Below are positions 1 through 51,390 of a stretch of 64,000 bases of DNA, piece by piece. The notes under the pieces are model-generated. The model was not told the DNA's origin. It saw only the letters and a program-made list of their open reading frames with translations, and made no database searches. Source of the DNA: an uncultured Candidatus Saccharibacteria bacterium (GTDB lineage Bacteria; Patescibacteriota; WWE3; UBA101185; UBA10185); NCBI GenBank assembly GCA_964387275.1, contig CAYLVW010000001.1, positions 5,514 through 69,513 on the forward strand, in the 5' to 3' direction. The position numbers were made by a program, and so were the translations under genes. Numbering within the stretch: position 1 is the first letter of the stretch; every line of letters begins with the position of its first letter.

Positions 1-3000
1 GTAAACCTCGTATCAATATTTTGTGATCTCCCAGCACAAATTCCACATTCACTTCGTCTCTTGTTTGAGATGGGTCTGACGATGGGTAGTAGGTGACAAT
101 TGAGGAGGTTTCTGTATTTGTTTTCCAACTAATAAGTACTGTAGGTTGAGCTGTACCTCTTACTTGTTGTATTTTAACTTCACTGATTTTTGGTCGTGGT
201 AAGGTTTCAAAAGTTAATGTGCTCCCTTCATATTCTGCTGCTTCTGAATCAAAGCCGTTAATCTTATAGAAGTATTTTGTACCGTCTTTAAGATCCTCCA
301 GGATAGTATTATATGTTGCTTCGGATGTAGAGGTTGAGACTTCCAGAGTGGATCCAAATGTTTGAGTTTCTCCGTAGTAAATCCTTATTTTAGTTGCGCC
401 CTCTACTGTGTATCTTATGGTTGCTGTAGTTAGGTTTACAGCAATTGCTTTTGGATCTGTCACCGTTGGGGCTGGCGCTGTTTCGAAAGTTGTTTCTTCT
501 GATGTTCCTGTATTACCGTCTTCGTCTGTCCACTTTGCTTGAAAGTAGTATCTGGTACCTGGGCTTAGGTTTGTAAGAGTTATAGTATGGTCTGTTAACT
601 GGTCGGAGTTTGAAGGTTCCTCATCAAAGAAATCACCAGATCCCTTACCGTACTGGATTTTTGAGTCAGATGTTCTATCAGTTGCCCAGGTTATTGTTGC
701 CTGTTTTGTAGTAATTGCACTTACAGTAGGACCACTAGTAAGTTCGGCAGCGGTTGTATATCTACCATCTGGGTAAGCTGAAACCGCAGTTGTAAAGATA
801 CCACAGTTGTTTGTAGTATCGCATGCTCTTACTTTGTAATAATGGGTTGCTTGTGCCAAATTTGTGTCAATATGGGCAATACCGCTTACTTCTGCTGCAA
901 ATGTGTAGGATGAATCATCTGTAGAGTGGTATATTTCGTAAGTTATATTTGAACTTCCTGTTGTTGGCGGTTCCCATGAGAGAGCAAGTTTCCATGATTC
1001 TGTTTCTTTAACAGATACGTCAGCAATTTCCACATTTAAAGGTACTCCTGGGGATGACGTGTTTGCTGTAAAAGTAACGCTTGCATAAGCGTCATAGTTT
1101 ATATTGTCTACTTCATCCATTGCTGCTACATATAGGGTATTAGACCCTGGTTGGTTTGCATACGGTCCTGATGACAGGGCTGAAATACCTTCTGCAGTGA
1201 ATGTACAGGTTGAGGCGGATGGTAGGGTATTTACGGTATAGCAGTAAGTTAAAGTTGATGAGTCTGGCATGCCTGTGTAGCTAGATGGCGCATCCCAGTC
1301 AAATGCAAAAGCGTTTGCAGTGTTTGTACTTGGAGTAACTATGAGATTTTGTGGTTCTGTTGGTGCGGTACCCGCAAAGTAGAAGTTTACTTGTTTGTAG
1401 GTAGAAGTAACGTTACCTGTATTATCGATAGTTCTCATATATAAAGTGTTTGGGCCTTCGTTTGCGATATCTGTTAGTGTTGTTTGTGTTGTTCCAACAG
1501 CTATTGTGGAAGACCAGCTGCTGGTTCCATTTATAGAATATTGGTATCCTGCTACTCCTGAACCACTTGTATCTGTTGCATCATTTGTCCAGTAGAAAGT
1601 ATATGAATTTGTAGCAGTATATCCTGGAGGCAGCGCTGTTAGTGAGCTTGGGTTTGTAGGTGCTGTACCATCGTATTGATAATTAAATGGTGCATATATT
1701 GAGCTGACGTTTTGAGCGTTGTCCCTTGCCTGTATCCTTAAGTAATAAGTTGAGTTTGATGTCATACTGGATGGCGTAAAGGTGGTACCTACTTGGAAAG
1801 TTCCTGCTGTTGAAGGAGTTGCAGTGTTATCAGTACCAAAGTATACATAGTATCCCTCTATTCCCGAACCTCCCGGATCTGTTGCACCTGACCAAGAGAA
1901 ATAAGGTGTAGCATAGTTGTACCAAGTGTCTGTTGTCAAAGATACAGATCCCCCTGATTGATCCAACGCTGTTAGAGATGATGGTGGGTTTGGTGCGGTA
2001 GCATCTTCACTACCTACTAATGTAACCGAGTTTAAAGTTGCTTGTTGGGTTCCGTCGCCATCAAGAACTGCTTGCCACATAAAGCCGTCCGTAGTGACAT
2101 CAAATGAAGAAACATTTGCTGTTATTGTAGCTATTGGGTTTACTTCTGTAAGCGCGGATGAAGTTGTCCAAGCACTGCCGTTCCAGTATTGCCATGTGGT
2201 GCCTCCATCACTTGAAAGTCTATAATTAAGGGACCCTCCATTAGCTGTCTCACTTGATGCTAAGGAGTCCCATTGCAGAACACCCGATGTAAAAACAGCT
2301 GAGTTTGGTCTTACTGTTTGGGGATCACTAGTATATGGGGTTGTGATAAAGGTACTTCTTGCTGTATCACTTATTCTTAGCTCATCAATCTGGCCCGCGA
2401 GATAACTTAGTGGGAGTCCACTATCCACTGCTCCATGGCTTGTACCAACTCTGAGTTGTAATGTATTAGTTGGTATTGATCTTGTCGCAGATGTTGTTGC
2501 ATCCTCAACACCATTTATATATATCTTCATTGCAGTGCCGTTGTAAGTGGCTGCAACATGTCTCCAATCTGTATTAAAAGAATTTGTTGCAGATTCAAGA
2601 ACTGCGTTATTTCCATAACTCCATACATTAGCATCTACGTTTCCTGAATCTCCTGTACCTGTATAGAGTTTACCTTTATAGGTGGTTACAAAGGTTGCAT
2701 GTTCAGCTGTGTTACTTGCCCATGAGTTATTCAGATCGTCACCCGCGACTTTTGTCCAAGTTGTAAAGTCATATCTCCAGACCTCACCATCTCCAGCTGC
2801 ACTACCTGTTGTTACATACATATCTCCGTTATATTCAGCGATTGACCTAATTCTTTCCATTTCACCTGCTGGCCAGCTGCTGTTTACATCATCGCCTCCA
2901 ATTAGTGTCCATGTAGATCCGTTATATTCCCATACTTCCGCATCGTCCGAGCTATTTCCAAGTCCGGCATACAATTTGTCTCCAATTGGAGCCAGAGCCT

Positions 3001-5563
3001 CTACTGTCTCATATACGGCATTTGCCCAGCTTGAGTTAACAGCATCTCCTCCTACTCTTGTCCAAGATGAGCCATTCCACCTCCACACTTCTGCGTCACC
3101 CGCTGAAGCACCAAGACCTGCATACAATTGATTATTATAAAAAGCAAGTGAGTAGACTGCCTCAAAGTTAGTAGTCCACCCGGAATTTAAACTATCCCCG
3201 CCAATCTTAGTCCAGGCAGTGCCATTCCATCTCCATACCTCTGCATCATTTGCAGAATTACCAAGGCCTGCATATAGATATGTGCCATCGGAGGCTAGGG
3301 CATAGACACCTTCAAAGTTAGTAGTCCATCCGGAGTTTAGGCTATCTCCTCCAAATTGAGTCCAGGAAGTGCCATTAAATCTCCACGTTTCTGCATCATT
3401 TGCGGTTATACCAAGACCTGCAATCAGTTGATTATCATATTGACCCAAAGCCAGTACGTTTTCGTATGTGTTAAAGGCCCAACTTGAATTAACACCTTGT
3501 CCTCCTACTATGTTCCATGTTGATCCATTAAAATCCCATACTTGAGCACTTCCAGCTACACTAATACCAGTTCCGACATATAAACTCTCACTTAGAACCT
3601 CTGCTGTTTCTATTGTTTGTCTGTTGTAGTAACCCCAGCTACTATTAATGTACTGACCTCCGATTCTGGTCCAAGTAGTACCATTAAAGCTCCAGAAATC
3701 AGATCCTTGGTTGGTTGAAGTTTGTCCGGCGTACAGTGTGCTTGAGTTATATGTTAGTGCACTGATAATTGTGTGAGTATTTGTAAACCCGGAATTTAAA
3801 GCATCTCCACCAATCTTAGTCCAGGCAGTGCCATTCCATCCCCATACTTCGTTATCTCCAGCGGTGGCGCCAAGTCCCACATACAGATTTGATCCATCGT
3901 TCGTCATTGAATAGACGTACTCATATGTAGAAGCAGCCCACCCGGAGTTTAATGCATCTCCTCCTATTTGTGACCATGAAGTACCATTCCATCTCCAAAC
4001 ATCTCCATCCCCTGCGGTATCTCCTGTACCTGCATAGAGATTTCCTCCGTAGTAACTAAGAGACCACACTCTTTCAATGTTGCTGCCGGCTGCCCAGCTT
4101 GAATTAACACCATCTCCTCCTATTCTTGTCCAGGTAGTGCCATTCCATCTCCATACCTCTGCATCCTGAGCAGTAAGCCCCAAGCCAGCATAAAGGTTTG
4201 TTCCATCATTTACTAGAGCGTGAACAATTTCAAAGTTAGTAGTCCAGCCGGAGTTTAGGCTATCTCCTCCAATCTTAGTCCATGATGTGCCATTCCATCT
4301 CCATACCTCCGCATCGTTTGCAGAATTACCAAGACCTGCATATAAATTGCCTCCATAGTAATCAAGTGAGTAGACACCCTCCATTGCTAGTACTGCTGTC
4401 CAGCTGGAGTTAACACCGTCTCCACCAATTTTAGTCCATGCAGCGCCGTCCCATCTCCATACCTCCGCATCACCTGCAGTAAGACCTAATCCTACATAGA
4501 CATTAGTGCCATCATTTGCAAGTGCCAAAACCTGCTCGTATTGTTGTGCTGTCCAGCTATCATTTACTCCATCACCTCCAACTTTTGTCCAGGTTCCCCC
4601 CGACCATTGCCATACTTCTGCATCACTGACGGCATTACCAAGGCCTACAAAGACACTTGTTCCCATTGACGTGCTGGCAGACACCGAAAGTTGGCCGTTT
4701 AAATCCCAGCTGTTATTAATTTCGCTCCCTGCTACTTGTGACCACGTGGTTGCTGCAGAATCCTCTAGCTCGTATGTCAACTTTCCTGTCAAATGATTAA
4801 AGTAAAGTTTATATCCTCCTTTGTCCACTATCGCCATATCTCTATCATTTGAAGTTGCGTTAAAGGTAGATGTTAATTTTATCCAAGCTTCTATAGTATT
4901 TTCTGCAACAATATCTAATACAGATGAATCTGCTGCATATCCATAAGAAATTTGACCATCAAAGGAGCCTGCATTATTAAAATTGCCAGAAGAATAAGTA
5001 ATATTTGAATTAGTTAGTGTGTTTGCATTGCCCGAGCTGTCTGAAGCATTCCCAGAGCTTTCATCAAAGTGATATAGCGCTACTGTATCTGCATCTGTTT
5101 CGTAATTTCGAACTTTTAGCCTTGCAGTATTACCCAAAACCTCTATTAAACTTGAGTCTGATACTGTGTAATCTCCAGATGCTGAAAAATCCCAAGTGTT
5201 TGTTAGTTCTCCCGCAGCTTTTACTCTTTGCAGGATGTTTGTTGTGGCAAAGAAAATTCCAATACATATGCCCAAAGTCAGGATAAAAGCTGTTGAAGCT
5301 TTTACCTGCCATCTTGCTAGAGTTACCTTTTTGTCACCATTTTCTTTTACTATTTTTATAGCCTCATAAGTTTTTTCTAAAAACGCAATTAAGCCATTTT
5401 TAAAAAAACTTACTATGCCTGCACGTCTGGTTGCTATAGTTGTTACTTTTTTCTTTTTAAAAATACTGAAAAAATTTACTCGCAGAAAAGGCAAACCGCT
5501 TATATGTCGTCGGGTTTTAGACCTTCTATTAAACTGTCTTATATCATTTTTCAGATCTATCAT
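1..5563 (-). CDS. Giant secreted/surface protein, 5' part (start ATG at 5563, continues beyond window start). It has an N-terminal TM/signal, a LamG/concanavalin-like domain, about 13 tandem ~51-aa Kelch-like beta-propeller repeats (EVWRWNGTSWTKIGGD..NSSW...LYAGLG), a second LamG-like domain and multiple FN3-like domains.
   Basis: Manual minus-strand translation gave an uninterrupted frame from 5563 down to position 1, preceded by an in-frame TAA 15 codons upstream. Repeat periodicity is clear in the protein. There is a TIEAWIKL-type LamG signature and FN3 motifs (GSGIEGYYVYFGTD, ITWATDRTSDSKIQYG). The plus-strand ORFs in this span are short and mutually exclusive with this frame. Confidence 0.8.
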   Translation of the reverse strand, partial: MIDLKNDIRQFNRRSKTRRHISGLPFLRVNFFSIFKKKKVTTIATRRAGIVSFFKNGLIAFLEKTYEAIKIVKENGDKKVTLARWQVKASTAFILTLGICIGIFFATTNILQRVKAAGELTNTWDFSASGDYTVSDSSLIEVLGNTARLKVRNYETDADTVALYHFDESSGNASDSSGNANTLTNSNITYSSGNFNNAGSFDGQISYGYAADSSVLDIVAENTIEAWIKLTSTFNATSNDRDMAIVDKGGYKLYFNHLTGKLTYELEDSAATTWSQVAGSEINNSWDLNGQLSVSASTSMGTSVFVGLGNAVSDAEVWQWSGGTWTKVGGDGVNDSWTAQQYEQVLALANDGTNVYVGLGLTAGDAEVWRWDGAAWTKIGGDGVNSSWTAVLAMEGVYSLDYYGGNLYAGLGNSANDAEVWRWNGTSWTKIGGDSLNSGWTTNFEIVHALVNDGTNLYAGLGLTAQDAEVWRWNGTTWTRIGGDGVNSSWAAGSNIERVWSLSYYGGNLYAGTGDTAGDGDVWRWNGTSWSQIGGDALNSGWAASTYEYVYSMTNDGSNLYVGLGATAGDNEVWGWNGTAWTKIGGDALNSGFTNTHTIISALTYNSSTLYAGQTSTNQGSDFWSFNGTTWTRIGGQYINSSWGYYNRQTIETAEVLSESLYVGTGISVAGSAQVWDFNGSTWNIVGGQGVNSSWAFNTYENVLALGQYDNQLIAGLGITANDAETWRFNGTSWTQFGGDSLNSGWTTNFEGVYALASDGTYLYAGLGNSANDAEVWRWNGTAWTKIGGDSLNSGWTTNFEAVYSLAFYNNQLYAGLGASAGDAEVWRWNGSSWTRVGGDAVNSSWANAVYETVEALAPIGDKLYAGLGNSSDDAEVWEYNGSTWTLIGGDDVNSSWPAGEMERIRSIAEYNGDMYVTTGSAAGDGEVWRYDFTTWTKVAGDDLNNSWASNTAEHATFVTTYKGKLYTGTGDSGNVDANVWSYGNNAVLESATNSFNTDWRHVAATYNGTAMKIYINGVEDATTSATRSIPTNTLQLRVGTSHGAVDSGLPLSYLAGQIDELRISDTARSTFITTPYTSDPQTVRPNSAVFTSGVLQWDSLASSETANGGSLNYRLSSDGGTTWQYWNGSAWTTSSALTEVNPIATITANVSSFDVTTDGFMWQAVLDGDGTQQATLNSVTLVGSEDATAPNPPSSLTALDQSGGSVSLTTDTWYNYATPYFSWSGATDPGGSGIEGYYVYFGTDNTATPSTAGTFQVGTTFTPSSMTSNSTYYLRIQARDNAQNVSSIYAPFNYQYDGTAPTNPSSLTALPPGYTATNSYTFYWTNDATDTSGSGVAGYQYSINGTSSWSSTIAVGTTQTTLTDIANEGPNTLYMRTIDNTGNVTSTYKQVNFYFAGTAPTEPQNLIVTPSTNTANAFAFDWDAPSSYTGMPDSSTLTYCYTVNTLPSASTCTFTAEGISALSSGPYANQPGSNTLYVAAMDEVDNINYDAYASVTFTANTSSPGVPLNVEIADVSVKETESWKLALSWEPPTTGSSNITYEIYHSTDDSSYTFAAEVSGIAHIDTNLAQATHYYKVRACDTTNNCGIFTTAVSAYPDGRYTTAAELTSGPTVSAITTKQATITWATDRTSDSKIQYGKGSGDFFDEEPSNSDQLTDHTITLTNLSPGTRYYFQAKWTDEDGNTGTSEETTFETAPAPTVTDPKAIAVNLTTATIRYTVEGATKIRIYYGETQTFGSTLEVSTSTSEATYNTILEDLKDGTKYFYKINGFDSEAAEYEGSTLTFETLPRPKISEVKIQQVRGTAQPTVLISWKTNTETSSIVTYYPSSDPSQTRDEVNVEFVLGDHKILIRGL

Positions 5564-5715
5564 GGCAGGTGATTCATCTTCTAATAATCTTACATGAATT
5601 ATAAATTATTTTGAAGTAATAGATAGGCTGAATTTGCTGCCTTATCAACATATAGATATATATAAATATTAATTCTTGTATGGGTAACAGAATCTAATTT
5701 GGTATTATTGAACAT

Positions 5716-6720
5716 ATGGAAACAAGCTCCAAAGAGAAAGTTATGATTAGGCCCCTTAGCCGATATATTTTAATGTTTCTGTTGTTAATTTTAGGGTTTG
5801 GTTTTGGGATTTTATTTGATAAATCGTTAATAAAAAATGCTTTTATTAGTGAAGTTAGGCTGCCCCAGCAGTACAAGTATATTAATCCTCTTTTAGAGTG
5901 TGATTCCAACATTGGTAACTATAAATCTCTAACTAAAACTGAAGACAGCGTATCCTCTTACATTAAGGATGCAAAAGACAGGGGTACAATTACCAGCGCA
6001 TCTGTTTACTACAGGGATTTAAATAATGGTCCATGGTTTGGTATTAATGAACAGGAGAAGTTCACTCCCGCGAGTTTAATTAAGGTTCCTATGATGATCG
6101 CTTATTTTAAAAGGGCCGAAACAGATCCAGATATTTTAAGTAAAAAATTAATATTTTCTTCTAAAGATCAAATCTCCTTAGGTCCTGCTTTTGTTAAACC
6201 TAAGGAAGAGTTGATTGAAGGGCAGGAATATACTGTTATGGAGTTAGTTGAGATCATGATTAAGTTTTCTAATAATAATGCTTACTACCTTCTCAAGAGT
6301 AATTTAGGAGAAGATAGGTTTGAACAAACTCTTAAAGATTTTGGTATAGATGTTGCTAAGATTAACTCTAGTAACACAGAGAATGTTTTAACAATTCGCG
6401 AGTATTCATCATTCTTTAGAATTTTATACAATTCTTCTTACTTGAGCAGAGCTTACTCTGAGAGGGCTTTGGAGATTTTGAGCGGGGTAGAATTTAAGTC
6501 TGGGATAAGTGCCGGTATACCTGAATCTGTTTTGGTTGCAAATAAGTTTGGTGAGAGATCTTATCAAGATTCTTCTATCAAGCAGCTGCATGATTGTGGG
6601 ATTGTTTATAAGACTAATAATCCTTATTTGGTATGTATTATGACAAGAGGGGGTACTTTTGACGATTTAGCAAATTCTATAAGGGATATTTCTAAGATTA
6701 TTTATAGCTCTTTGAATTAG
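5716..6720 (+). CDS. Membrane-anchored serine hydrolase with class A beta-lactamase-like fold
   Basis: N-terminal TM helix. Motifs present are an S-x-x-K (PASLIK), an SDN-like SNN and a KTG-like KFG, consistent with a penicillin-binding/beta-lactamase-type fold. Confidence 0.6.
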   Translation: METSSKEKVMIRPLSRYILMFLLLILGFGFGILFDKSLIKNAFISEVRLPQQYKYINPLLECDSNIGNYKSLTKTEDSVSSYIKDAKDRGTITSASVYYRDLNNGPWFGINEQEKFTPASLIKVPMMIAYFKRAETDPDILSKKLIFSSKDQISLGPAFVKPKEELIEGQEYTVMELVEIMIKFSNNNAYYLLKSNLGEDRFEQTLKDFGIDVAKINSSNTENVLTIREYSSFFRILYNSSYLSRAYSERALEILSGVEFKSGISAGIPESVLVANKFGERSYQDSSIKQLHDCGIVYKTNNPYLVCIMTRGGTFDDLANSIRDISKIIYSSLN

Positions 6721-6808
6721 TTTAATGTTGTAACTGTATTTTTTATGAAGGTTGTTTGTTAATCAGCGTTGTTACCTCTATTTGTATTTTAGGATTTTTA
6801 ATGAATGT

Positions 6809-6861
6809 GGGCGGGCGCAGCTGGGTTAGAAAAATCAGATCACCACTTGCTGCGCCCGCCC
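6809..6861. other. Perfect 13-bp GC-rich inverted repeat (GGGCGGGCGCAGC...GCTGCGCCCGCCC) with a 27-nt loop, downstream of the beta-lactamase-like gene
   Basis: Read directly from the sequence. No U-tract follows on either strand. Confidence 0.7.
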
Positions 6862-6995
6862 CTACCATCTCCTTACCTCCAAACCTTTCTTTTCAGAACA
6901 ACCGAAACAGCTCAAACCAAATCTTCTAACTAACCCACTTTACTCGAGTTCAATCCAAGACTGGAGATCAGTCTTGTTGTAAAACGGGGGCCAGA

Positions 6996-7388
6996 CTACC
7001 TTCTTCTGCCTTTGCCCTTACGCACATCGAAAACACCTCTTGGGGTGTAAGGTCCTTCGGGTTCTCTCAGGTATAGCGAGGTTACATAAAGTGCAACTTC
7101 ATGTTCTCGCCTGCTCGGCTCAAACCCAGCAATGACCTCTGCCTTAGACCAGATCGATTCTTGAGTTGGCAGTCTGATCAAGGCAGTTTTAAAAAGGCTT
7201 CGATACAACTCAACCAAAGCCTTATCTTTGTTACACCATGGAAGACAAAATGGCCTTCCTCTAAGCTCCTGGGGCTTGTAGTTGGAAATTATCCTTTCGA
7301 GTAGGTGGTGGTACATTAAAGAAACATCAGTGTTTCCAACAACCAGAGACCCACCACCTGCGTTTGATAATTGCCCAGAGCTTGTCAT
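6996..7388 (-). CDS. Hypothetical small basic protein (130 aa) in a locally GC-richer segment
   Basis: A strong Shine-Dalgarno (AAGGGGAGG) lies 5–6 nt upstream of the ATG on the minus strand. The ORF is intact with a C-terminal Arg/Lys-rich tail and no recognisable family. Confidence 0.45.
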   Translation of the reverse strand: MTSSGQLSNAGGGSLVVGNTDVSLMYHHLLERIISNYKPQELRGRPFCLPWCNKDKALVELYRSLFKTALIRLPTQESIWSKAEVIAGFEPSRREHEVALYVTSLYLREPEGPYTPRGVFDVRKGKGRRR

Positions 7389-7551
7389 TTGGTCCTCCCC
7401 TTTATATCACAGATCGGTTTTGGAATTTTGTGGTTTTCACACCAATCCGTAACTTAGATAAATACTACCATTATTAGTGCAATCATCAATACTATTATAT
7501 TAATATGAATTATTTATCAAACAGTTACTTATGGTTGTTAATAATGAGTAC

Positions 7552-8949
7552 TTATGCCGCTTCGCTATCAGCAATGTATTTTTTGATCAATCTCCTAGCC
7601 TTGGGGCTTTTTACAAGCTCAAGCCAGTCTTTACTGGGTCTTGCTCTGGGATTTGTCAGAACTTCTACGACATCCCCATCTTTGAGTTCTTGGGAAAGTT
7701 TTGCAATTTTACCGTTGATCAGCGCGCTGATGCATTTGTAGCCGATATCTTCGTGTACTGCAAAAGCAAAATCAATAATAATAGCACCTACAGGAAGTTC
7801 TATTATTTTTCCTTTTGGCGTAAAAACATACACTTTGTTTTTAAAAGTTGAAATCTCTGTATTTTCAGCTTTGGTTAAAGACTTTACATTTAATTGTTTT
7901 AATAAATCGGGTGATGAATTAAGGTATTTTTTTAAATGCTCGCCAATCTTATAGAAAGCATGGCTTGCCTTACCATATTCATTTTCTTCATGCATATCTT
8001 TAGTTTTAATTTGAATTTCTAGGTAAAAATCTTCTGAAGCCTTATATATATTGTGAATAGATCTATATCCGGTCATACGAGGCTCTTTAATAAAGTCATC
8101 TCTTGAATCCGAAAGCGTATCCCAGATATTATTTAGCATGTCCTCTACTAAGTAGCACTCATCTATCGAATCTACAATAATTGCCATGGCCGCAATATCG
8201 TATATATGCTCCAGAGATCTTCCTACTCCGTTGTACTTAACCTCTTTTTTATAAATTGAATATGTGTGCTTAATTCTTTTTAGGATTATAGGATCTTTTA
8301 CATTATTTTCAGCAAGTATTGCTCTGATAAACGCTTCTGTGTCTCTAAATAAATTCTCAATCGCAGGTTTTTTGCTTGCTACAAAATACGAAATATCCGA
8401 ATACTTTTGAGGGTTTAATACTTTAAAAGCGTTATCCTCAAGTATTCTTGAGTAAGAACTAAGACCAAGCAAATGACATACAGGGCTATATAAAGTAAGT
8501 ATTCTCTGTGCTCTACCTAGTCTTATATCCTCAGGAAGAGAGAATAAGGACTGTGCATCTTCGACCTTATCAGCAAGTCTTACAAGTAGCAATCTAATAT
8601 CTTGAGCAATGTTTAGATACGTTTGTATTATGTAACCTGTGTTTACAACTTCTTCTGACATCATTCTGACTTGGTGATTCCTAAGTTCGTCATATCTTCT
8701 AACCAGATCATATATATCCTGCCCAAGTTCATTAACTATTTGTTTTTTATATTCTTCTGTTTCTAAGGGAACAAAATGATGGAGTATAGCAAGAATTAAT
8801 GTTTCTTCATCCTTTACACCTATTTTTACCAAGTTACTTAAAACTTTTTCCACATGTTCGTACAAAGCAGCTCCTGAGAGTCTTTTTTTATCTTTATATA
8901 TTTTTTGAGCTATTTGTTTTGCTCTAAGTAATCTGTTTTTTTCTTCCAT
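7552..8949 (-). CDS. rel: Short bifunctional Rel/SpoT-type (p)ppGpp synthetase/hydrolase (HD + RelA/SpoT synthetase + TGS domains, no ACT domain)
   Basis: HD motif (LILAILHHF..). The synthetase domain carries YRSIHNIY and EIQIKTKDMHEENEYGKASHAFYK. A C-terminal TGS-like segment (VYVFTPKGKIIELPVGAIIIDFAFAVH) is present. Confidence 0.85.
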   Translation of the reverse strand: MEEKNRLLRAKQIAQKIYKDKKRLSGAALYEHVEKVLSNLVKIGVKDEETLILAILHHFVPLETEEYKKQIVNELGQDIYDLVRRYDELRNHQVRMMSEEVVNTGYIIQTYLNIAQDIRLLLVRLADKVEDAQSLFSLPEDIRLGRAQRILTLYSPVCHLLGLSSYSRILEDNAFKVLNPQKYSDISYFVASKKPAIENLFRDTEAFIRAILAENNVKDPIILKRIKHTYSIYKKEVKYNGVGRSLEHIYDIAAMAIIVDSIDECYLVEDMLNNIWDTLSDSRDDFIKEPRMTGYRSIHNIYKASEDFYLEIQIKTKDMHEENEYGKASHAFYKIGEHLKKYLNSSPDLLKQLNVKSLTKAENTEISTFKNKVYVFTPKGKIIELPVGAIIIDFAFAVHEDIGYKCISALINGKIAKLSQELKDGDVVEVLTNPRARPSKDWLELVKSPKARRLIKKYIADSEAA

Positions 8950-9249
8950 TTTTAGACCAAACTTTACAAGTCTTTGCAGTTTCCTAGTGAAAGGAAGTTG
9001 GAGAAGGCACGTGCTTTAGCGCGTGGAGTCTCATTAAAATGCCTGTTATAACCTGCAGCTAGGTAACTTGGCACAATCAGTATGCCCGCAGACTTAGAGA
9101 TACAGGGTGCGAGAGCTACATATAGTTTCCAGAAACAAAAAACACCCGTACCGGGCTTTATACTATTTTTTGGGTGAAAAGCGTCTGCATCTCCTTAGTT
9201 TTCACGTCTATATATTATACATTAGTGGGGAAGTTTTGTTTATTTTTAG

Positions 9250-10711: not shown

Positions 10712-12223
10712 TTGAAGATATTGATTAATATTATGGGTATTTTCCGTAAAACAAACATTCAAACAATTGTTCAAAGTGCTACCTCCGAGATAGGTAGGGG
10801 GTATTTAGTGGATGGTAAAAGATACATAACTCATACTGGTCTTCACCACAAAGAGAGTGCTTTATATAGTATGACTTCTTGGCAGAAATTATTAATCATA
10901 TTAATGGTCATATTTATTTTGTTAATGTTGGTTACTAATTTTCATACTTCATTAGTCGCACTAAATGCTGCATTAGCTACTTTATATTTCACAGATTTAT
11001 TGTTTAACTTATTCCTTATCTATAGATCCTTTTCCAGTAGCCCAGAAATTAGGGTTAGTGATACTGAGATATCAAGCCAAACTAACTGGCCAAAATATAC
11101 AGTGTTTTGCCCGTTATATAAGGAAGCGGAGATAATACCGCAGTTTGTAGAGGCGATGTCGCGTATGGATTATCCAAAAGATAGGCTACAAGTTTTGTTA
11201 TTACTCGAAGAAGATGATAAAGCCACAATACAAGCAGCTTATAATATGAATTTACCTACATATGTTGAAGTTGTCGTAATTCCACATTCACTGCCAAAAA
11301 CAAAACCAAAAGCACTTAATTATGGTATGGGTTATGCTACTGGAGATATTATTGTTATTTATGATGCCGAGGATATCCCAGAACCATTGCAGCTAAAGAA
11401 AGCAGTTCTAGCGTTTGCAAAGTCCTCAGAAAATACAGTTTGTATACAGGCTAAACTCAATTTCTATAATCCATACCAAAATTTATTAACTAAGATGTTT
11501 ACTTCTGAGTATTCTTTATGGTTTGATTTAGTTCTGACAGGTCTTCAGTCTATTGATGCTCCAATCCCCTTAGGTGGAACCTCAAATCATTTTTTGACCA
11601 AATATATTAAGGTGCTTCGAGGTTGGGACCCTTTCAACGTGACTGAGGATTGTGATCTTGGGATTAGATTAGTAAAGAAAGGATATAGAACCGCAATATT
11701 AGATTCCACAACCTATGAAGAAGCAAATAGCGACTACATAAATTGGTTTTGGCAACGAACACGCTGGATCAAGGGTTACATCCAAACTTATTTCGTTCAT
11801 ATGAGGGATCCAAAGTCTCTTTGGGCAGGTATTCGAAATCCTCACATACTGACTTTTCAGTTAGTTGTTGGCGGTAAGGTATTATCAATGTTTATTAATC
11901 CCCTAATGTGGATCACAACCATTTCCTATTTTGTTTTTAAACCTTTAGTAGGTGATACAATAGAGTCTTTTTTTCCTGCACCTGTTTTTTACTTATCTAT
12001 CTTCTCCCTGATATTTGGTAATTTCTTATACATGTACTATTACATGATTGGGTGTGCAAAACGAGGATACGATGAGCTGTTAATTTATACTGTGCTCGTA
12101 CCATTCTATTGGTTAGCAATGAGTTTTGCTGCTGTTGTAGCCGTTTGGAGATACATTGTCGCTCCGCATCACTGGTCTAAAACTAAGCATGGGTTACATT
12201 TAAGGACTACCAATTCAATATGA
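10712..12223 (+). CDS. Membrane glycosyltransferase family 2, processive type (QxxRW)
   Basis: GT2 core with DAED (..GDIIVIYDAEDIP..) and a Q-R-T-R-W motif (WFWQRTRWIKG). TM helices lie at the N- and C-terminus. Its stop overlaps the next gene's start (ATGA). Confidence 0.8.
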   Translation: MKILINIMGIFRKTNIQTIVQSATSEIGRGYLVDGKRYITHTGLHHKESALYSMTSWQKLLIILMVIFILLMLVTNFHTSLVALNAALATLYFTDLLFNLFLIYRSFSSSPEIRVSDTEISSQTNWPKYTVFCPLYKEAEIIPQFVEAMSRMDYPKDRLQVLLLLEEDDKATIQAAYNMNLPTYVEVVVIPHSLPKTKPKALNYGMGYATGDIIVIYDAEDIPEPLQLKKAVLAFAKSSENTVCIQAKLNFYNPYQNLLTKMFTSEYSLWFDLVLTGLQSIDAPIPLGGTSNHFLTKYIKVLRGWDPFNVTEDCDLGIRLVKKGYRTAILDSTTYEEANSDYINWFWQRTRWIKGYIQTYFVHMRDPKSLWAGIRNPHILTFQLVVGGKVLSMFINPLMWITTISYFVFKPLVGDTIESFFPAPVFYLSIFSLIFGNFLYMYYYMIGCAKRGYDELLIYTVLVPFYWLAMSFAAVVAVWRYIVAPHHWSKTKHGLHLRTTNSI

Positions 12224-17306: not shown

Positions 17307-18158
17307 ATGGCACTTGTTAACTACATTTGTAGATGGTGTGGGTCAACATTTACGGATTTTCCCAAAGATGGGACTTGTCCTAAATGTATGGGGCCTGGAG
17401 TCTATGAGATTCCTAAGCCTGTTGTTGCTAAACCTACTTATCCCTCTGACGACCAGCCTCCAAGCGCTAGTACTCCTTCGCAGCAAACTCAACGAAGTAA
17501 CTACCCATATCAGCCTTATGTTTACACGAGACCTAGTCCTTTTCGGGAGGCTCAATATAGTCTCTTTAGGACTTTTGGTTTTAGAGCTATTGCTGTTGTG
17601 GTGGTTATTGTCTTTACAATTCTTGCAGTTTGGGTTGGTACCTGGTTGTTTTATACGGGATCACCAAACCAGCTGACAAATCCTAGCCTTCAAAACTCTT
17701 TTCCCACCACTTCCCCTACTGTTACACCTAACAGTATTAAGAAGCCGTGGGATGGTATGACGTTTCTTAGCTCAAATCAGGCGCAAAGCCTTAAAGAAGA
17801 AAGTAATGTTGTAAACTTCGCCGTTTTTAATAATGGTGATGTTAGTTATAGTGCTGGCTATGGAGTTGTTTATAGCAATGATTCAGGTTGGATTGATGCT
17901 GGAAGACCTATCGGGTTTTCTCAGCTGACTACAACCGGTAGTAGTGTAGTACTTACGATTCATGGTAAAGACTACACCATCAACATCTATCAGGCGTTTT
18001 CCCTTTCTCAAGACTGGGGCAACGTTTATATTGTTGATGCTTCAGGTAAGCTTTGGAAGAAAGCACTTATTGCAAGTGACTTTGTGGGTATAGATATCGT
18101 TTTGGACAACGTAGTTGTTACTATTGACCCCAACCCGAATCTCTCCCTGACCTACTAA
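17307..18158 (+). CDS. Zinc-ribbon (CxxC...CxxC) membrane-anchored protein with a Pro/Gln-rich linker, one TM helix and an extracytoplasmic domain
   Basis: Strong SD (GAAGGGAGG) before ATG 17307. Sequence CRWCGS...CPKC, then a TM segment (AIAVVVVIVFTILAVWVGTWLF). Confidence 0.6.
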   Translation: MALVNYICRWCGSTFTDFPKDGTCPKCMGPGVYEIPKPVVAKPTYPSDDQPPSASTPSQQTQRSNYPYQPYVYTRPSPFREAQYSLFRTFGFRAIAVVVVIVFTILAVWVGTWLFYTGSPNQLTNPSLQNSFPTTSPTVTPNSIKKPWDGMTFLSSNQAQSLKEESNVVNFAVFNNGDVSYSAGYGVVYSNDSGWIDAGRPIGFSQLTTTGSSVVLTIHGKDYTINIYQAFSLSQDWGNVYIVDASGKLWKKALIASDFVGIDIVLDNVVVTIDPNPNLSLTY

Positions 18159-18178
18159 GGAAAGGGAAAAGGAGCAAC

Positions 18179-19996
18179 ATGTTTCTTGGACTGTCCTTTG
18201 TAACGGCAATTCTTGCCGCTTTGTTTGCAGCTATTTATCCTTTGTTTGGTATATCCAATCAGGCGCGTGATAGGTATAGTAGGGTTGCTAATAGAAGTTT
18301 TGTTCCTGCTATTATCGCAGCTATTTTGGCCTTTATTGCAACGATGGTTTATTTTGTGTTTGGTTTGCCTGTGTTTGATCACCTTGTTCATTACTTTACG
18401 CTTGGTCTAATTGCTGCAATTTCAGCTTTCCTACCAAGCTTTGTGTACTCTTGGGCAACTGACGAATCTGAAACCGGTGGGTATGCCATTACCACTGTCA
18501 TTATTTTGGCAGCTCTTATTGCAAATAGTGTAGCTACACCGTTTCTTTTTTTCCAGCCGGGTTTTTGTGATCAGGTTGGTACTCAGAAGATGGTTAGTCT
18601 TTTGAAGATCAAAGATGGTGAAGGTGATATTCACCCAACCGATCTTTCTTCTATCATTAGAGTGTCTCCTGAAAATGCGTTGCTTAAGGCTAGGCGGTCA
18701 CTTCCTTCGGGAGCGAACCTTGGTTCGTATCTGGAGTTTAATCGTGCTTACCTTCAAGAGGTAGCCGGTCACTACTATTATGTTGTTGATCTTAAGGTTA
18801 AGGATTGGCGTGCCTATGAGACTAATGGCGCAGTGATTCCTGGTTTTATTCTTGTGGATGCTATGAATAACGAGGCCGAAGCTGAATTTCGCGCCGGTTA
18901 TTCTATTAAGTACTCGCCCAATATGGATGAGTTGAAATTCCTTAATGACCAAGATCTCGATCGTTATGTGTACTTTAACTTTATTTTGAATAACCCCGGA
19001 TTTAGGGTTATGGATTTGGATGGGATGGAGCTCGACGACTCTCTTACTCCTTACTACACCGGTACTGTTCTAAAGACAGTTGTTGGGTGGCAGGGTAAGG
19101 ATGTTGCCGGTGTTATTACTGTGAATGCTCAGACTGGTGAAATCCAGTATTACGAGCTAGGTAATATTCCTGAATGGGTCGATCGTGTGTATCCTCTTGA
19201 ATGGGGTTACACGATGCTTAATAACTGGTGGGGGCCGTATGCTTACTACCAGGTTTGTCAATTCCAGGGTAAGTCTAACCAGAGAGAAGTTGATGCTGCT
19301 AATGATGTAATTACCAGCAATGGTCTTGAGTTTCAGTACACTATGACGTCACCTAACAGCGACCAGTCTATTACTGAGATTATCTACATGGACCCTCGAA
19401 CTGGTGATCTTACCAAGTACCCCGCTTCGGGTTCTACGGTTATTGGTGTGGACAATCTTATCGATGAGGCTTCAAGAAAGCTTACTGCCGAAGGTTACGA
19501 GCCTGTCGAATGTGAGCTTCAGTTTATCTTGGGTCGTAAGGTTTGGTATTGTATTTTGAATGGTCGCGGTGCTGGTGATAACACTAGCTCCGGTTCCCAT
19601 AACGGGTTTGCATTTGTTCAGGATACGAATACTGAAGAAGGCACCAAGGTTATTATTGAGGCGACTCTTGAAGAGGCTTACCGCCAACTTCAACGCCAAA
19701 TCGCTACAGAAGGTGGCGATGTAACTGATATTGCAAACAGCACTAACGTTATGCAATTTGTCGGTGTTATTACCCACAAGGGTTTGCCCGCGGGGGATAA
19801 TCAGCCATACGTTATTATTGTTCAACTTGATGGAACAACTACGCAAGTTGTGTTCGCTGTTCCTACTACGAGTTGGAATGCCTCTGTGGCACAAGTTGGA
19901 GACAGCGTTACTGTCACAGCTTATGTCGAAGACGGTTCTTCCTACTTTACCGCTACTCATTTTATGATTAATGGTCTTGTAGACTTGGACAAGTAA
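18179..19996 (+). CDS. Membrane protein with 4 N-terminal TM helices and a large extracytoplasmic domain, unknown function
   Basis: SD AAGGAG before the ATG. A 605-aa ORF followed by an intrinsic terminator. Confidence 0.6.
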   Translation: MFLGLSFVTAILAALFAAIYPLFGISNQARDRYSRVANRSFVPAIIAAILAFIATMVYFVFGLPVFDHLVHYFTLGLIAAISAFLPSFVYSWATDESETGGYAITTVIILAALIANSVATPFLFFQPGFCDQVGTQKMVSLLKIKDGEGDIHPTDLSSIIRVSPENALLKARRSLPSGANLGSYLEFNRAYLQEVAGHYYYVVDLKVKDWRAYETNGAVIPGFILVDAMNNEAEAEFRAGYSIKYSPNMDELKFLNDQDLDRYVYFNFILNNPGFRVMDLDGMELDDSLTPYYTGTVLKTVVGWQGKDVAGVITVNAQTGEIQYYELGNIPEWVDRVYPLEWGYTMLNNWWGPYAYYQVCQFQGKSNQREVDAANDVITSNGLEFQYTMTSPNSDQSITEIIYMDPRTGDLTKYPASGSTVIGVDNLIDEASRKLTAEGYEPVECELQFILGRKVWYCILNGRGAGDNTSSGSHNGFAFVQDTNTEEGTKVIIEATLEEAYRQLQRQIATEGGDVTDIANSTNVMQFVGVITHKGLPAGDNQPYVIIVQLDGTTTQVVFAVPTTSWNASVAQVGDSVTVTAYVEDGSSYFTATHFMINGLVDLDK

Positions 19997-20002
19997 CTTT
20001 TT

Positions 20003-24064: not shown

Positions 24065-25756
24065 TTAGCCAAAAGTAAATGCAAAAATTTCGGTTTCTCC
24101 ATCAACAAATTCCAAAATCAAGATATGTCTACCAGGAATTTCCAAATCCACTAAATTGTACAACGTGTCCGCACTCACTGTAACAAGCCCATTTGAATCA
24201 ACATTCGAACCATAGTAATTTTCTACATCGTCTATAGTAACTTTAACTTTTGTGGGTTTTCCAGAAGGACTCATCACTAGAAACACTCTTTTTGCATCAA
24301 AATTTAGATATAATTTTGATCCTACCGATGCTTTAACGGATTCCTTACCAACCTCCCAATTTCCTTCAAACGCATATTTATTGTTTGCAATAACTATTGG
24401 TGCACTAAACGTTGTTGTTTTGTTTAATGTTGGTTTTTCTGGAGAGGTTAAGCTTGTTGCTCTATCCAGACCCAGATAGGTCTCATGTGTTTTCGCATAG
24501 TTACGATTCTCATTGGGTACTATACTAACTTCAGATTCAATTTTTTCACCTGTTTCTCCAAGTAGTTTAACAATCATCTCTTCAGTTTCCTTGTAGTTGC
24601 CTTCACCAAAGTGTGTATATCTAATATAACCATCCTTATCTATTAAGTATTTAGCTGGCCAGTACCTATTTGCGTAGTTTTTCCAAGTGGCAAATTCATT
24701 GTCTTGCATAATCGGGTACTCTATACCAAAATCTGAAATAGCTTTTTGGACATTATCTGATTTCTTTTCAAACTCAAACTCAGGTGAGTGCACCCCGATT
24801 ATTACAAGTCCTTTGTCTGAGTATTTTTTATGCCAGTCTTTTAAGTAGGGTAGTGTACGCTGGCAGTTGATGCATGAATATGTCCAGAAATCTATAATAA
24901 CCACTTTGCCTTTCAGACTTGATACGGTTTGAGGATTCGAATTAAACCACTCACCACCTTGAATAAGTTCTGGAGCAGTTTTTTTAGGCGCTAAGTCAGA
25001 AGATAGCTTATCAAAGTTGCTAACCATATTATCTTTTGTATAAATTTCTTCAATTTTTGTAAGCCCTGTTCCATAATTAGGGAAAGTTCTAAGTACCCAA
25101 TACTGAAAAAATCTATCCCAATTTAGAAACATTGCAATTGCAGTTAATACCATAACTACACCAAAAGCTTTTTGAATGTTAGCTGCATTTTTTGTAACCC
25201 CTGGAAGTTTCCTGATTGCATTTTGTCCTGCGAGCATCACAAAAAACATTGGGATTGCTGTACCTACTGAATATGACAGTGTTATTAATATTGCTTGTGC
25301 AGTAACTGTACCTGTAATTGCAAGTGTTATAACAGAAGCTAGAATTGGACCGACACACGGAGTCCACAAAAGTCCAAGTGATAACCCAACAACAACTCCA
25401 GAACTGAATCCGGAGTTTATATTTCCTCTTGGTACAAAATTACCCAGTTTACTAAATAGTTTTTCAAGTTGTATTTGTACTTGCGGAATTAAGTACGATA
25501 TTCCAAATAAGCCTATCAGCACAATTGATACTTTTCTAAGTAAATCAGCCTCAATGTTAAGAGATCTTACTATTGAGCTTAGAAATAAAGTAAAGAACGT
25601 GAAACTGAGTATGAAACCAACAATAATTCCAAATGGTCTCGCCCTACTTTTAGCATCCCCAACACCGGAAGATAAGATGATTGGCAAGACAGGCAAGATA
25701 CATGGTGAAAGTATTGTAACCACCCCTGCTATAAATGCGAATAATATTACAAGCAT
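24065..25756 (-). CDS. Thiol:disulfide interchange protein, CcdA/DsbD-like TM domain fused to a TlpA/ResA-like thioredoxin domain plus a C-terminal extra domain
   Basis: N-terminal LSPCILPVLP (DsbD_2 Cys) and a second TM Cys (WTPCVGP). The thioredoxin motif is WTYSCINCQ. Confidence 0.8.
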   Translation of the reverse strand: MLVILFAFIAGVVTILSPCILPVLPIILSSGVGDAKSRARPFGIIVGFILSFTFFTLFLSSIVRSLNIEADLLRKVSIVLIGLFGISYLIPQVQIQLEKLFSKLGNFVPRGNINSGFSSGVVVGLSLGLLWTPCVGPILASVITLAITGTVTAQAILITLSYSVGTAIPMFFVMLAGQNAIRKLPGVTKNAANIQKAFGVVMVLTAIAMFLNWDRFFQYWVLRTFPNYGTGLTKIEEIYTKDNMVSNFDKLSSDLAPKKTAPELIQGGEWFNSNPQTVSSLKGKVVIIDFWTYSCINCQRTLPYLKDWHKKYSDKGLVIIGVHSPEFEFEKKSDNVQKAISDFGIEYPIMQDNEFATWKNYANRYWPAKYLIDKDGYIRYTHFGEGNYKETEEMIVKLLGETGEKIESEVSIVPNENRNYAKTHETYLGLDRATSLTSPEKPTLNKTTTFSAPIVIANNKYAFEGNWEVGKESVKASVGSKLYLNFDAKRVFLVMSPSGKPTKVKVTIDDVENYYGSNVDSNGLVTVSADTLYNLVDLEIPGRHILILEFVDGETEIFAFTFG

Positions 25757-42016: not shown

Positions 42017-42871
42017 ATGGAGAACTTCAGTTTTGATGCAATCGGTACAAGGTGGGAGGTTTCACTCCCACCTTTTAGATCTTCTGAAACCTTGATGAAT
42101 AATATCAGGCAACGTATAGAGGATTTTGAATCTACATATTCAAGGTTTAGGGACGGGTCACTACTATCAAAAATTGCTGTATCACATGAAACAATGGAAT
42201 TGCCCAAAGATGCAAAAGAGCTATTTGATATTTATAAGAAATTTACCAAGTTAACCCTTGGATCCTTTACTCCTTTTATTGGTAAAACTTTAGTAGAAGC
42301 AGGGTACGATAGAGATTATTCTTTTGAGAAAAAAATAATTACTAAGCAACTTGTTTGGGATGAGGTTTTTGAATATGATTTCCCGAAATTGGTTGTTAAA
42401 AAACCTGTTCAATTAGATTTTGGGGCGGCTGGTAAGGGGTATATCATGGATATAGTTTCTAAAATGATAGTGGATTTTGGTATAAAAGATTTTGTGGTTG
42501 ATGCTGGTCACGATTTGCTATGTGGCAGCAATGTGGTTAAAGTAGGGCTTGAACATCCTAATGATTCTACTAAAGCAATTGGTGTTGCCAAAATATCCAA
42601 TTCTTCTATTTGTGGTTCTTCTGGAAACAGAAGGAATTGGGGAGAATTTCATCATATTATAAATGGCAATACACTATCTTCCCCAAAAGATATTTTAGCT
42701 ACTTGGGTTATAGCTAAAAATGCAATTGTTGCCGACGCTATTTCAACTGCGCTTTTTTTTGTTAAACCTGAGGTTTTTCAAAAAGATTATTTTTTTGAGT
42801 ATTTAATTTTAAAGTCGAACTCTAGTATAGAAAAATCTGCTAATTTTCCAGGAGAGATATTTTATGCTTAA
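42017..42871 (+). CDS. apbE: ApbE-family FAD:protein FMN transferase
   Basis: DFGAAGKGYIMD and overall ApbE architecture. It starts 3 nt after the previous stop. Confidence 0.7.
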   Translation: MENFSFDAIGTRWEVSLPPFRSSETLMNNIRQRIEDFESTYSRFRDGSLLSKIAVSHETMELPKDAKELFDIYKKFTKLTLGSFTPFIGKTLVEAGYDRDYSFEKKIITKQLVWDEVFEYDFPKLVVKKPVQLDFGAAGKGYIMDIVSKMIVDFGIKDFVVDAGHDLLCGSNVVKVGLEHPNDSTKAIGVAKISNSSICGSSGNRRNWGEFHHIINGNTLSSPKDILATWVIAKNAIVADAISTALFFVKPEVFQKDYFFEYLILKSNSSIEKSANFPGEIFYA

Positions 42872-44336: not shown

Positions 44337-44344
44337 TAAAAAGT

Positions 44345-44400
44345 CCCCTTTGCACTGATTGGTGTTTAAACCAGGGGTGCAAAGGGGTTTAGGTTTTTAG
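44345..44400 (+). terminator. Terminator-like hairpin (CCCCTTTGCAC...GTGCAAAGGGG) followed by TTTAGGTTTTT
   Basis: 11-bp stem plus a T-rich tail after stop 44336. Confidence 0.6.
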
Positions 44401-44454
44401 TTCGTGAAGTGCTTACAATTTTCTAGTATAAGCCGCGCGCTTTAATGTTAGGTC

Positions 44455-45051
44455 TTACTTCTTAAGCTTTTTTCGTGGCGTAGTTTCCATAAAGCTAAAT
44501 GGAGGACCAACACTCTCAGTAAGCGCAGAAGCAGCTGTGAGAGCGTATTTAGCTTGGACGCTAGGCTTGACTTGCAAAGCATTCATTGCGTGAAATGCTC
44601 CAAGAGCAAAATACATGCCTGAACCAACAGAAAAGAAATCACCTGTAATTGGCGTGACACAAAAGTCATTTCCAATCAGACAGACCTCATCTGCAAACGC
44701 AATAAGAATTTGTCCATCCAAATTAGGTACACCCTTATCCGTTTCCAACATCTCATAGCTTCGGGCCGTTCGCTTAAGACTTGGGATAATATATTCAAGA
44801 ACTGTATCCTCGAGATTGAGGGCGCGTCGTGGCCCCAACCTTCCAAAGGGAATATGGATTTTAGAAGTGTAGTGCCTAATCTTACCTGCACCTGTATGAC
44901 CGATCAGAAAGTGATCATTAAACCTAAAAATTTTACCCCTATCATCTGGGAGAGTCGTAGTGATAAAACCGCCATTTAGGCTACGTCTACTATCAGCCCC
45001 AAGAATAACTGTACCGCGATGCTTATTTCGGACAGCGACAATACACGTCAT
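44455..45051 (-). CDS. Stand-alone proteasome/HslV-like Ntn-hydrolase (Thr1 after Met)
   Basis: MTCIVAVRNKHRGTVILGADSR... and GSGMYFALGAF resemble HslV/beta-subunit motifs. No hslU adjacent. Confidence 0.5.
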   Translation of the reverse strand: MTCIVAVRNKHRGTVILGADSRRSLNGGFITTTLPDDRGKIFRFNDHFLIGHTGAGKIRHYTSKIHIPFGRLGPRRALNLEDTVLEYIIPSLKRTARSYEMLETDKGVPNLDGQILIAFADEVCLIGNDFCVTPITGDFFSVGSGMYFALGAFHAMNALQVKPSVQAKYALTAASALTESVGPPFSFMETTPRKKLKK

Positions 45052-45189
45052 GTATCGCTCCTTTTTTGATCTCAGGTATTTTGTCTTTACTTAAGCAAAA
45101 AGTCAAGTTTTATTCTTACGATCAGTTTATATATAGACACATACATATGCTAATATGATTAGTACATTAGTTATTTTGGAGACATAAAT

Positions 45190-45621: not shown

Positions 45622-45656
45622 ATTTTTTACTAGTTTTGTGTTTTTTGTAGGGTTAG

Positions 45657-45688
45657 GGCGCGGGTTTTTAGTAATAAAAACCCGCGCC
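45657..45688. other. Perfect 14-bp hairpin (GGGCGCGGGTTTTTA-gtaa-TAAAAACCCGCGCC) between convergent genes
   Basis: Read directly. Plausibly a bidirectional terminator. Confidence 0.7.
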
Positions 45689-45710
45689 TCATGCGCCAAA
45701 AACTTAAAAC

Positions 45711-46772: not shown

Positions 46773-46827
46773 TTTATCTCCTCTTTCTTGGTGTATTTAT
46801 AGCCTAATGGTTGGTATTGTTCAACTA

Positions 46828-47598: not shown

Positions 47599-47661
47599 AT
47601 ATTAATACTATCACATTGTATTAACTCTTAAGGGTTTCTAGTTTGTTGTACTGGTGAATTG

Positions 47662-47868: not shown

Positions 47869-47898
47869 ATTATGCTATGATTATATTGTATTAACGCT

Positions 47899-51370: not shown

Positions 51371-51390
51371 AGTATATTAACTTAGTCACA

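Follow-up and report, generated by a model that had tools for sequence, protein, structure and literature searches.

A giant gene at the left end of the window

The DNA analysed is a stretch of 64,000 nucleotides (nt) of contig CAYLVW010000001.1, from an uncultured Candidatus Saccharibacteria bacterium; the whole stretch is referred to below as the window, and positions are counted from its first letter. At its left end, on the minus strand, lies a giant gene predicted to encode a surface protein in which a double beta-propeller is nested inside a LamG domain. Retranslation showed this frame to be free of stop codons from position 5605 down to base 2, with the first ATG at 5563; the frame then covers 1854 codons and is still open where the window ends on the left. 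The single uninterrupted minus-strand open reading frame (ORF) of at least 5.5 kb and more than 1850 amino acids (aa) proposed in a first-pass annotation of the window was thus confirmed. The ORF does extend past the window, as that annotation had also stated, but only about 163 aa appear to be missing from the window copy. Its full length was taken to be that of a syntenic ortholog (L004:13343-19396), which encodes 2017 aa and shows 96% identity to the window protein across all 1854 aa, with 0 gaps. Locus L004 is a contig from the European Nucleotide Archive; a near-identical contig from the Joint Genome Institute, L005, carries a giant gene of the same length (2017 aa). Both were reached via the neighbouring RelA/SpoT gene, and both have the local gene order of the window: RelA, an ORF of 130–137 aa, a beta-lactamase-like gene and the giant gene.

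The giant protein is rich in T, S, G, A and N, with five cysteines in 1854 aa. The G+C content over the giant gene (window 1–6000) is 39–43%, that of the rest of the window being 33–38%; the difference is probably due to the G/A/T/S/W-rich composition of the protein. The features assigned to the gene, in the order of the protein, are the following:

2..5563, minus strand: giant ORF, 1854 codons without a stop; full length 2017 aa, judged by the ortholog
5306..5563, minus strand: basic N-terminal tail, aa 1–86, predicted to be cytoplasmic
5225..5305, minus strand: sole hydrophobic helix, aa ∼87–113, found in a Kyte-Doolittle scan
4760..5203, minus strand: conserved N-terminal strands and N-terminal half of the LamG domain (Laminin_G_3), aa 121–268, assigned by the spliced profile match
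2609..4759, minus strand: nested array of 14 Kelch-like blades, aa 269–985, modelled as two seven-bladed propellers
2330..2608, minus strand: C-terminal half of the same LamG domain, aa 986–1078, matching Laminin_G_3 positions 72–146
2000..2329, minus strand: beta-sandwich with an Asp-box-like SSDGGTTW motif, aa 1079–1188, predicted by AlphaFold2 with local confidence (pLDDT) of 81–94
2..1999, minus strand: seven FN3-like modules, assigned from Pfam, AlphaFold2 and Foldseek

A single LamG domain is predicted to be split by the array

When the intact 1854-aa protein was compared with Pfam using hmmscan, no match to Laminin_G_3 was obtained at E ≤ 1. The segment preceding the array (aa 121–268) gave no Pfam LamG match when analysed alone, and the segment following it (aa 986–1078) matched only positions 72–146 of the Laminin_G_3 profile (56.8 bits, E 4e-15). 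Spliced together, the two segments matched Laminin_G_3 (PF13385) in one stretch that covered positions 8–146 of 151, with a score of 71.7 bits (E 9e-20) that exceeds the gathering cut-off of 27.6 bits. The N-terminal half supplies positions 8–71 of the profile, and does so only when joined to the C-terminal half. That the two halves are exactly complementary indicates that one jelly-roll accommodates the array, of about 717 aa, in one of its loops. As judged from these profile matches, the architecture is one LamG jelly-roll with nested propellers, and not the succession of LamG, propellers and a second LamG that had been read from the sequence at first pass; the two LamG domains claimed there are most simply the halves of one.

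An AlphaFold2 model of aa 121–1078 was built from a 33-sequence alignment. The pLDDT values were 81–94 over the strands of the N-terminal LamG half and 81–96 over both halves, and the predicted template-modelling score (pTM) of the model was 0.85. Among relatives, an HFDE-type motif lies about 155 aa before the first repeat unit and a W(H/R)HVA motif about 70 aa after the last. The same split LamG domain was found both in relatives with 14 blades (P0001-P0007, P0024, P0032) and in relatives with seven (P0015, P0027).

LamG/concanavalin proteins are commonly proposed as attachment factors in bacteria of the candidate phyla radiation (CPR), where attachment of episymbionts is at issue (PMC11310336). 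The giant protein resembles the LamG (Laminin_G_3) proteins of CPR and DPANN organisms in that it gives a full-length Laminin_G_3 match once its halves are spliced, and NCBI names its relatives ‘LamG domain-containing protein’; it differs from them in having its jelly-roll broken by a double propeller of about 717 aa. It would represent a clean case of a LamG jelly-roll that harbours another large domain, and no description of this nested architecture was found in the literature searched. Since a profile search of the intact protein misses the split LamG domain, automated annotation could overlook it.

The nested array probably forms two seven-bladed propellers

The motif [WF]x[WFY]x[GF]xxWxx[IVF][GA]G occurs 13 times between aa 318 and 929, at intervals of 50–52 aa. 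A hidden Markov model (HMM) of the repeat unit gave 15 matches: 13 full units of ∼51 aa, plus two half units at aa 270–300 (the C-terminal half of a unit) and aa 963–1001 (the N-terminal half). By this count the array comprises 14 blades, in agreement with the at least 13 tandem ∼51-aa units counted earlier. The repeat was found in no other ORF of the window.

The AlphaFold2 model of aa 121–1078 had a mean pLDDT of 88 and showed four strands per unit. When it was compared with the PDB using Foldseek, the top matches were tandem 7+7 propellers, namely Elp2, GH74 xyloglucanases, PorZ and WD proteins of the SSU processome, all with a probability of 1.0 and 770–900 aligned columns, and with TM-scores of 0.24–0.40 and 10–15% identity. 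Matches to viral models covered a single propeller of about 350–370 columns, with root-mean-square deviations of 3.7–5 Å; in length this corresponds to seven blades of 51 aa. The family members likewise fall into a class with about 14 blades and a class with about seven. Units 7 and 8 (aa ∼607–709) are the most divergent, in keeping with two rings meeting there, and the half units at its ends suggest that the array could close in a shared blade beside the LamG loop. The array is thus modelled as two seven-bladed beta-propellers, with four-stranded blades arranged in rings, and structure prediction agrees with the earlier proposal that the repeats fold as propeller blades in numbers sufficient for two propellers. 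A search for a seven-unit super-repeat, as a recent duplication of one propeller would leave, was not decisive: identity between units was 0.55 at offsets of 7 and 8, against 0.45–0.53. The tandem 7+7 propellers of GH74 xyloglucanases, of PorZ from the type IX secretion system and of Elp2 are the best structural matches to the whole model, yet their blades belong to other families (BNR/WD40), their identity to the array is 10–15%, and none is nested in a LamG domain.

The first-pass annotation had described the blades as Kelch-type. No Pfam Kelch model matched the whole protein, and the array alone matched no Pfam family even at E ≤ 10; a search of PDB sequences with the unit profile found no solved structure. 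However, relatives P0045, P0076, P0080 and P0090 match Kelch models above cut-off inside the region recognized by the unit HMM: P0045 matches Kelch_3 with 34.6 bits (cut-off 22), and P0076 matches Kelch_1, Kelch_2, Kelch_3, Kelch_4 and Kelch_6 above their cut-offs. In addition, hhalign placed the unit profile on a blade of a bona fide Kelch protein (P0117) with 69% probability and an E-value of 4e-5. More distant relatives are annotated as Rax2, DUF5122, Reg_prop or SBBP instead. The description ‘Kelch-like’ is therefore fair for a distant, transitive relationship, homology to Kelch through these intermediates being moderately supported; the direct Kelch match that the original wording implied was not obtained. 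Kelch propellers (Kelch_1-6, clan CL0186; PF24681) share with the array four-stranded blades of ∼51 aa and seven-bladed rings, and the register LYAGLG / (D)AEVWRWNGTxWTxIG parallels the ‘GG ... Y/W ... W’ pattern of Kelch. The array differs from them in its unusually high inter-blade identity (mean 49%) and in an extra conserved loop, GGDxxNSxW. The units thus constitute a repeat family without a Pfam model.

The stalk and the two ends of the protein

The beta-sandwich that follows the head (aa 1079–1188) is strongly conserved among relatives. Behind it, seven FN3-like modules were delimited from secondary structure and linker motifs (aa ∼1189–1298, 1299–1398, 1399–1502, 1503–1600, 1601–1696, 1697–1788 and 1789–1854, the last being cut by the window edge). 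This extends the earlier count of at least five. Pfam matches in this region were to fn3 (38.2 bits, cut-off 25), Pur_ac_phosph_N (34.5 bits, cut-off 30) and Ig_Rha78A_N (34.0 bits, cut-off 27.4); an NCBIfam OmpL47-type domain at aa 1326–1394 scored below its cut-off. The AlphaFold2 model of aa 1079–1854 (pLDDT 86, pTM 0.43) is an all-beta string of beads, for which Foldseek returned the FN3 strings of titin, gp130, the leptin receptor and fibronectin (7-10).

Complete family members end in the motif L-x-[LIV]-[IV]-x-x-x-L-x-x-x-[FL]-G-[FLW], located 0–12 residues from the C-terminus. The motif spans about 15 residues and is amphipathic (L-D-L-V-x-x-N-L-x-x-x-F-G-F). It was found in 34 of 234 and in 101 of 120 family hits, within the last 25 residues and never internally. 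An NCBIfam scan of the last 300 aa of the ortholog detected no sorting signal (LPXTG, PEP-CTERM, C-terminal domain of the type IX secretion system or similar), and no C-terminal hydrophobic or transmembrane helix was seen.

At the other end, the protein starts with ‘MID...’, as it does in loci L002 and L004, and its basic tail has 22 K/R against 6 D/E over the first 92 aa. The hydrophobic helix at aa ∼87–113 bears out the N-terminal anchor suggested at first pass. After it comes an AXA-like site (VKA|AG), with equivalents in L002 (VYA|SD) and L003 (LFA|AP). The helix would serve as a signal anchor or as a signal peptide with a long n-region; the AXA-like sites hint at cleavage.

An ATP-binding cassette gene pair accompanies the giant gene

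Directly downstream of the giant gene, an ATP-binding cassette (ABC) ATPase and a permease with MacB_PCD and FtsX domains were found in eight of eight independent loci, over a range of 37–96% identity. The loci are L004/L005, L002 (58%), L003 (∼50%), L006 (a CPR2 Saccharibacteria genome), L007 (the seven-blade form), L008/L009, L011 (37%) and L012. In L004 and L005 the ATPase gene starts no more than 2 nt past the giant gene and the permease gene comes next. The coding regions of the trio often have overlapping stop and start codons; the remaining neighbours differ among loci. The pair and the C-terminal motif both lie outside the window and were missed by the first-pass annotation.

The ATPase is nearest to LolD, FtsE and MacB, and the permease to MacB, ADOP and LolCE, with no NCBIfam equivalog cut-off reached. 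The ATPase of L004 (L004:19398-20582) has 394 aa compared with about 255, owing to a C-terminal extension of ∼170 aa that is rich in S, T, P and Q and of low complexity. The C-terminal tail of the giant protein occurs in subtypes that follow the size of the permease: the subtype ‘TITPKAxDNALDLV...FGFLxxxx’ is found with long permeases of 695–740 aa (3/3), and the subtype ‘IIGRAxxSxLT...FG[FL]’ with short permeases of 407–419 aa (4/4). No propeller repeat was found in the ectodomain of the long permeases.

Two further ABC/FtsX-type pairs lie just upstream in locus L011 (L011:3872-7373), one of the MacB_PCD type and one a true FtsEX with FtsX_ECD. Their presence indicates that the ABC pair following the giant gene constitutes an additional, separate system.

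Characterised type VII ABC systems are described as each acting with a dedicated extracytoplasmic partner, namely EnvC, LolA, MacA or TesA (PMC12646458, PMC7668044). The pair described here resembles these systems (FtsEX-EnvC/PcsB/RipC, LolCDE-LolA, MacAB-TolC and YbbAP-TesA) in the affinities of its ATPase to LolD/FtsE/MacB and in its MacB_PCD + FtsX permease; a specific extracytoplasmic protein encoded alongside, as described for type VII systems (PMC12646458, PMC7668044), is a further likeness. It differs in that the putative partner is a LamG/propeller/FN3 protein of about 2000 aa, and not a coiled-coil hydrolase activator, a chaperone, an adaptor or a lipase, that the host is a Patescibacterium, and that synteny is the evidence for the proposed interaction.

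Relatives in Patescibacteria and in phages

The full architecture was found in about 15 representatives (clustered at 50%) of 1740–2106 aa. The names attached to the family are WWE3, Saccharibacteria, Berkelbacteria, Kaiserbacteria, Moraniibacteriota, Roizmanbacteria, Woesebacteria, Beckwithbacteria, Dojkabacteria and Kerfeldbacteria. Among named sequences, the nearest to the RelA of the window is from WWE3 (42% identity), and on these sequence comparisons the window organism belongs to a Patescibacteria/CPR lineage. No description of the giant-protein family or of its operon was found in the literature searched.

The same repeat also occurs in phages. Host-specificity proteins with Phage-tail_3 and Rcc01698_C domains carry five to eight units at their C-terminus (E 1e-50 to 1e-91). 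One of them, P0060 (Phage-tail_3 + Rcc01698_C + 8 units), is encoded in a siphovirus tail module (L010:9001-11925 and neighbours). This module also contains a Mu-like gpT capsid gene, genes for a tail terminator, a tube and distal tail proteins, and a 735-aa ORF in tape-measure position. That phage proteins for host specificity carry the repeat at their C-terminus speaks for receptor binding as the role of the propeller. These gpJ-like proteins share the repeat family with the giant protein, with five to eight units; theirs is a single C-terminal propeller, lacking the LamG domain, the FN3 stalk, the C-terminal FGF motif and the ABC genes.

Age and integrity of the array

The first-pass annotation had warned that nucleotide-level identity among the repeats would make the locus prone to recombination and to assembly collapse. 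The analysis did not support this concern. Tandem Repeats Finder detected no DNA tandem array over the repeats; the units are on average 49% identical as protein and 57% identical as codon-aligned DNA (range 40–79%), with a longest exact common word of 31 nt. Collapse is unlikely because these DNA repeats have diverged, L004 aligns gap-free at 96% identity and the L005 protein has the same length of 2017 aa.

Blades at the same position are 53–65% identical across species, compared with 39–45% for blades at other positions. In the seven closest relatives compared, six to nine of the 13 units found their best match at the same position, about one being expected by chance; three or four of the 13 did so in the two most distant relatives compared. 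The array thus appears to be old and not homogenised, since same-position blades are closer across species than other blades are, and the consensus shared by the blades looks maintained rather than recent.

In five of eight relatives the giant gene is broken into two or three ORFs, at differing places that all fall within conserved domains (L002:12760-12880; L006:10440-10560; L008:∼11730-11850; L011:11330-11640; L012:4746-5830). The breaks are frameshifts, except in L011, where an in-frame TAA is found. The broken orthologs could be pseudogenes or could reflect phase variation or assembly errors. In L003, which comes from a Saccharibacteria relative, a run of N inside the first propeller (L003:∼4425-4530, aa 280–313 of ORF 3590-9097) marks an assembly gap or a masked stretch; the 10-blade array and the 1835-aa length read from this locus were set aside as unreliable, the run of N lying within the array.

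A candidate attachment protein with a proposed dedicated transporter

To our knowledge, how ultra-small Patescibacteria recognize and hold their hosts is largely unexplained beyond type IV pili. Taking together what was observed (the ORF, its domain architecture, the nested LamG domain, the propeller fold, the synteny, the C-terminal motif and the phage link), we lean, with some reserve, towards regarding the ∼2017-aa protein as a Sec-exported, probably glycan-binding surface adhesin of a WWE3-like Patescibacterium that partners with a type VII ABC system. The protein would be exported by the Sec pathway via its single N-terminal hydrophobic segment. Its head would consist of a LamG/concanavalin-like jelly-roll bearing two interlocked seven-bladed Kelch-like propellers in one loop, the half blades allowing the array to start and finish side by side where it is inserted. 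The head would be followed by a stalk made of the beta-sandwich and, in the full-length protein, about nine FN3-like modules, and then by the C-terminal motif. The likeliest role of the head is to bind a ligand, probably a glycan, on the surface of a partner cell; this is suggested by the retention of one consensus throughout the 14 blades and by the presence of the same repeat in phage host-specificity proteins. The MacB/FtsX-type transporter would be a dedicated partner that docks, releases or anchors the giant protein, possibly via the C-terminal motif. Alternatively, the transporter might drive the giant protein mechanically, as FtsEX drives EnvC or PcsB.

Several points weigh against this proposal. 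Ligand binding, glycan specificity, topology, signal cleavage, localisation and transporter contact are all inferred. The reunion of the LamG halves and the 7+7 partition of the blades derive from HMM register, pTM and structural matches, not from measured contacts. The C-terminal motif and the ABC genes are outside the window and were assigned to this organism via the 96%-identical syntenic loci L004 and L005. The head adjoins the N-terminal membrane segment and would thus sit close to the membrane, except if the signal is removed and the C-terminus holds the protein. Synteny indicates co-inheritance, not physical interaction, and the co-variation of tail type and permease size may reflect the phylogeny of two subfamilies. 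Finally, a 760-aa relative (P0045), in which 12 propeller units are joined at LYAGLG|MFNT to the three final helices of an FtsX permease, was considered as a natural (Rosetta-stone) fusion of the giant gene and the permease gene and was rejected: the junction shows GLG|MFNT microhomology, and TM1 and MacB_PCD are missing, so that it looks like a deletion or a chimera.

Other explanations were found to be less well supported than an adhesin working with the ABC pair. The protein could be a structural component of the envelope, such as an S-layer or surface-coat subunit, exported or anchored by the ABC pair; other bacteria use ABC-dependent systems to export S-layer proteins that bear C-terminal signals. 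The T/S/G/A/N-rich, cysteine-poor composition would suit a coat subunit, as would the long bead-like FN3 array, the conserved and seemingly uncleaved C-terminal motif and the retention of the family across many Patescibacteria classes. However, interruption of the gene in five of eight loci would be unexpected for an essential coat, the N-terminal Sec-type segment sets the protein apart from type 1 secretion substrates, the transporter is of the MacB/FtsX type and not of the ABC exporter type of type 1 secretion, and no sign of self-assembly was seen. We consider a coat subunit unlikely.

The linkage to the ABC genes might instead be incidental, the giant protein being an autonomous adhesin that happens to lie beside an efflux or peptide-resistance pump with which it has nothing to do. 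These genomes commonly contain MacB/FtsX-type pairs, as the two additional ones near the giant gene of L011, one of them a true FtsEX, illustrate, and contact with the transporter is deduced from synteny rather than seen directly. Against this, all eight loci, the most distant at 37% identity, retain gene order and adjacency, the coding regions overlapping or nearly touching, while the other neighbours change, and the tail subtype tracks the permease subtype; a chance association thus seems improbable.

Least probable is an extracellular enzyme that degrades or processes glycans, with a catalytic double propeller as in GH74, LamG and FN3 domains for binding and spacing, and an ABC system for uptake or export of the products. 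GH74 xyloglucanases (5jwz, 7kn8, 1sqj, 2cn2) were some of the best structural matches, glycoside hydrolases often carry Laminin_G_3 domains as accessory modules, and glycosyltransferase genes, together with GH81 genes in L004/L005, lie nearby. Such an enzyme is hard to reconcile, however, with a GH74 resemblance that stays at the level of the fold (12–15% identity, TM 0.24–0.29, akin to that of non-enzymatic WD40 double propellers such as Elp2; no catalytic family, GH74 included, in Pfam or NCBIfam scans), with a consensus uniform over 14 blades where one active-site cleft would be expected, with the same repeat in phage tail proteins, which points to binding, and with a transporter type that is not known to act as an importer.

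The adhesin reading can be taken one step further. The giant protein, its FGF motif and the MacB/FtsX pair might constitute an undescribed surface-display or attachment machine of Patescibacteria, in which the ABC system recognizes the motif in order to anchor, release or mechanically actuate the lectin-like double-propeller head, with which host cells would be seized. This extension is put forward tentatively, and we think it doubtful; if true, it would imply a new class of C-terminal sorting signal and a new job for mechanotransmission ABC systems. The family as such is a testable candidate for an attachment module: it is widespread in the phylum, it has many same-consensus blades as in phage receptor-binding proteins, and it is further marked by its constant linkage to a type VII ABC system and by the position-specific C-terminal motif.

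Other features of the window

Besides the giant gene, the region 18001–20000 of the window has a G+C content of about 43%; it surrounds a 605-aa membrane ORF (18179–19996) without a Pfam match. A fused DsbD-thioredoxin protein is encoded at 24065–25756. Further to the right, the region 42864–53984 contains an ORF resembling the large subunit of NiFe-hydrogenases (48462–49763) and a pyruvate:ferredoxin oxidoreductase gene (52245–53984).

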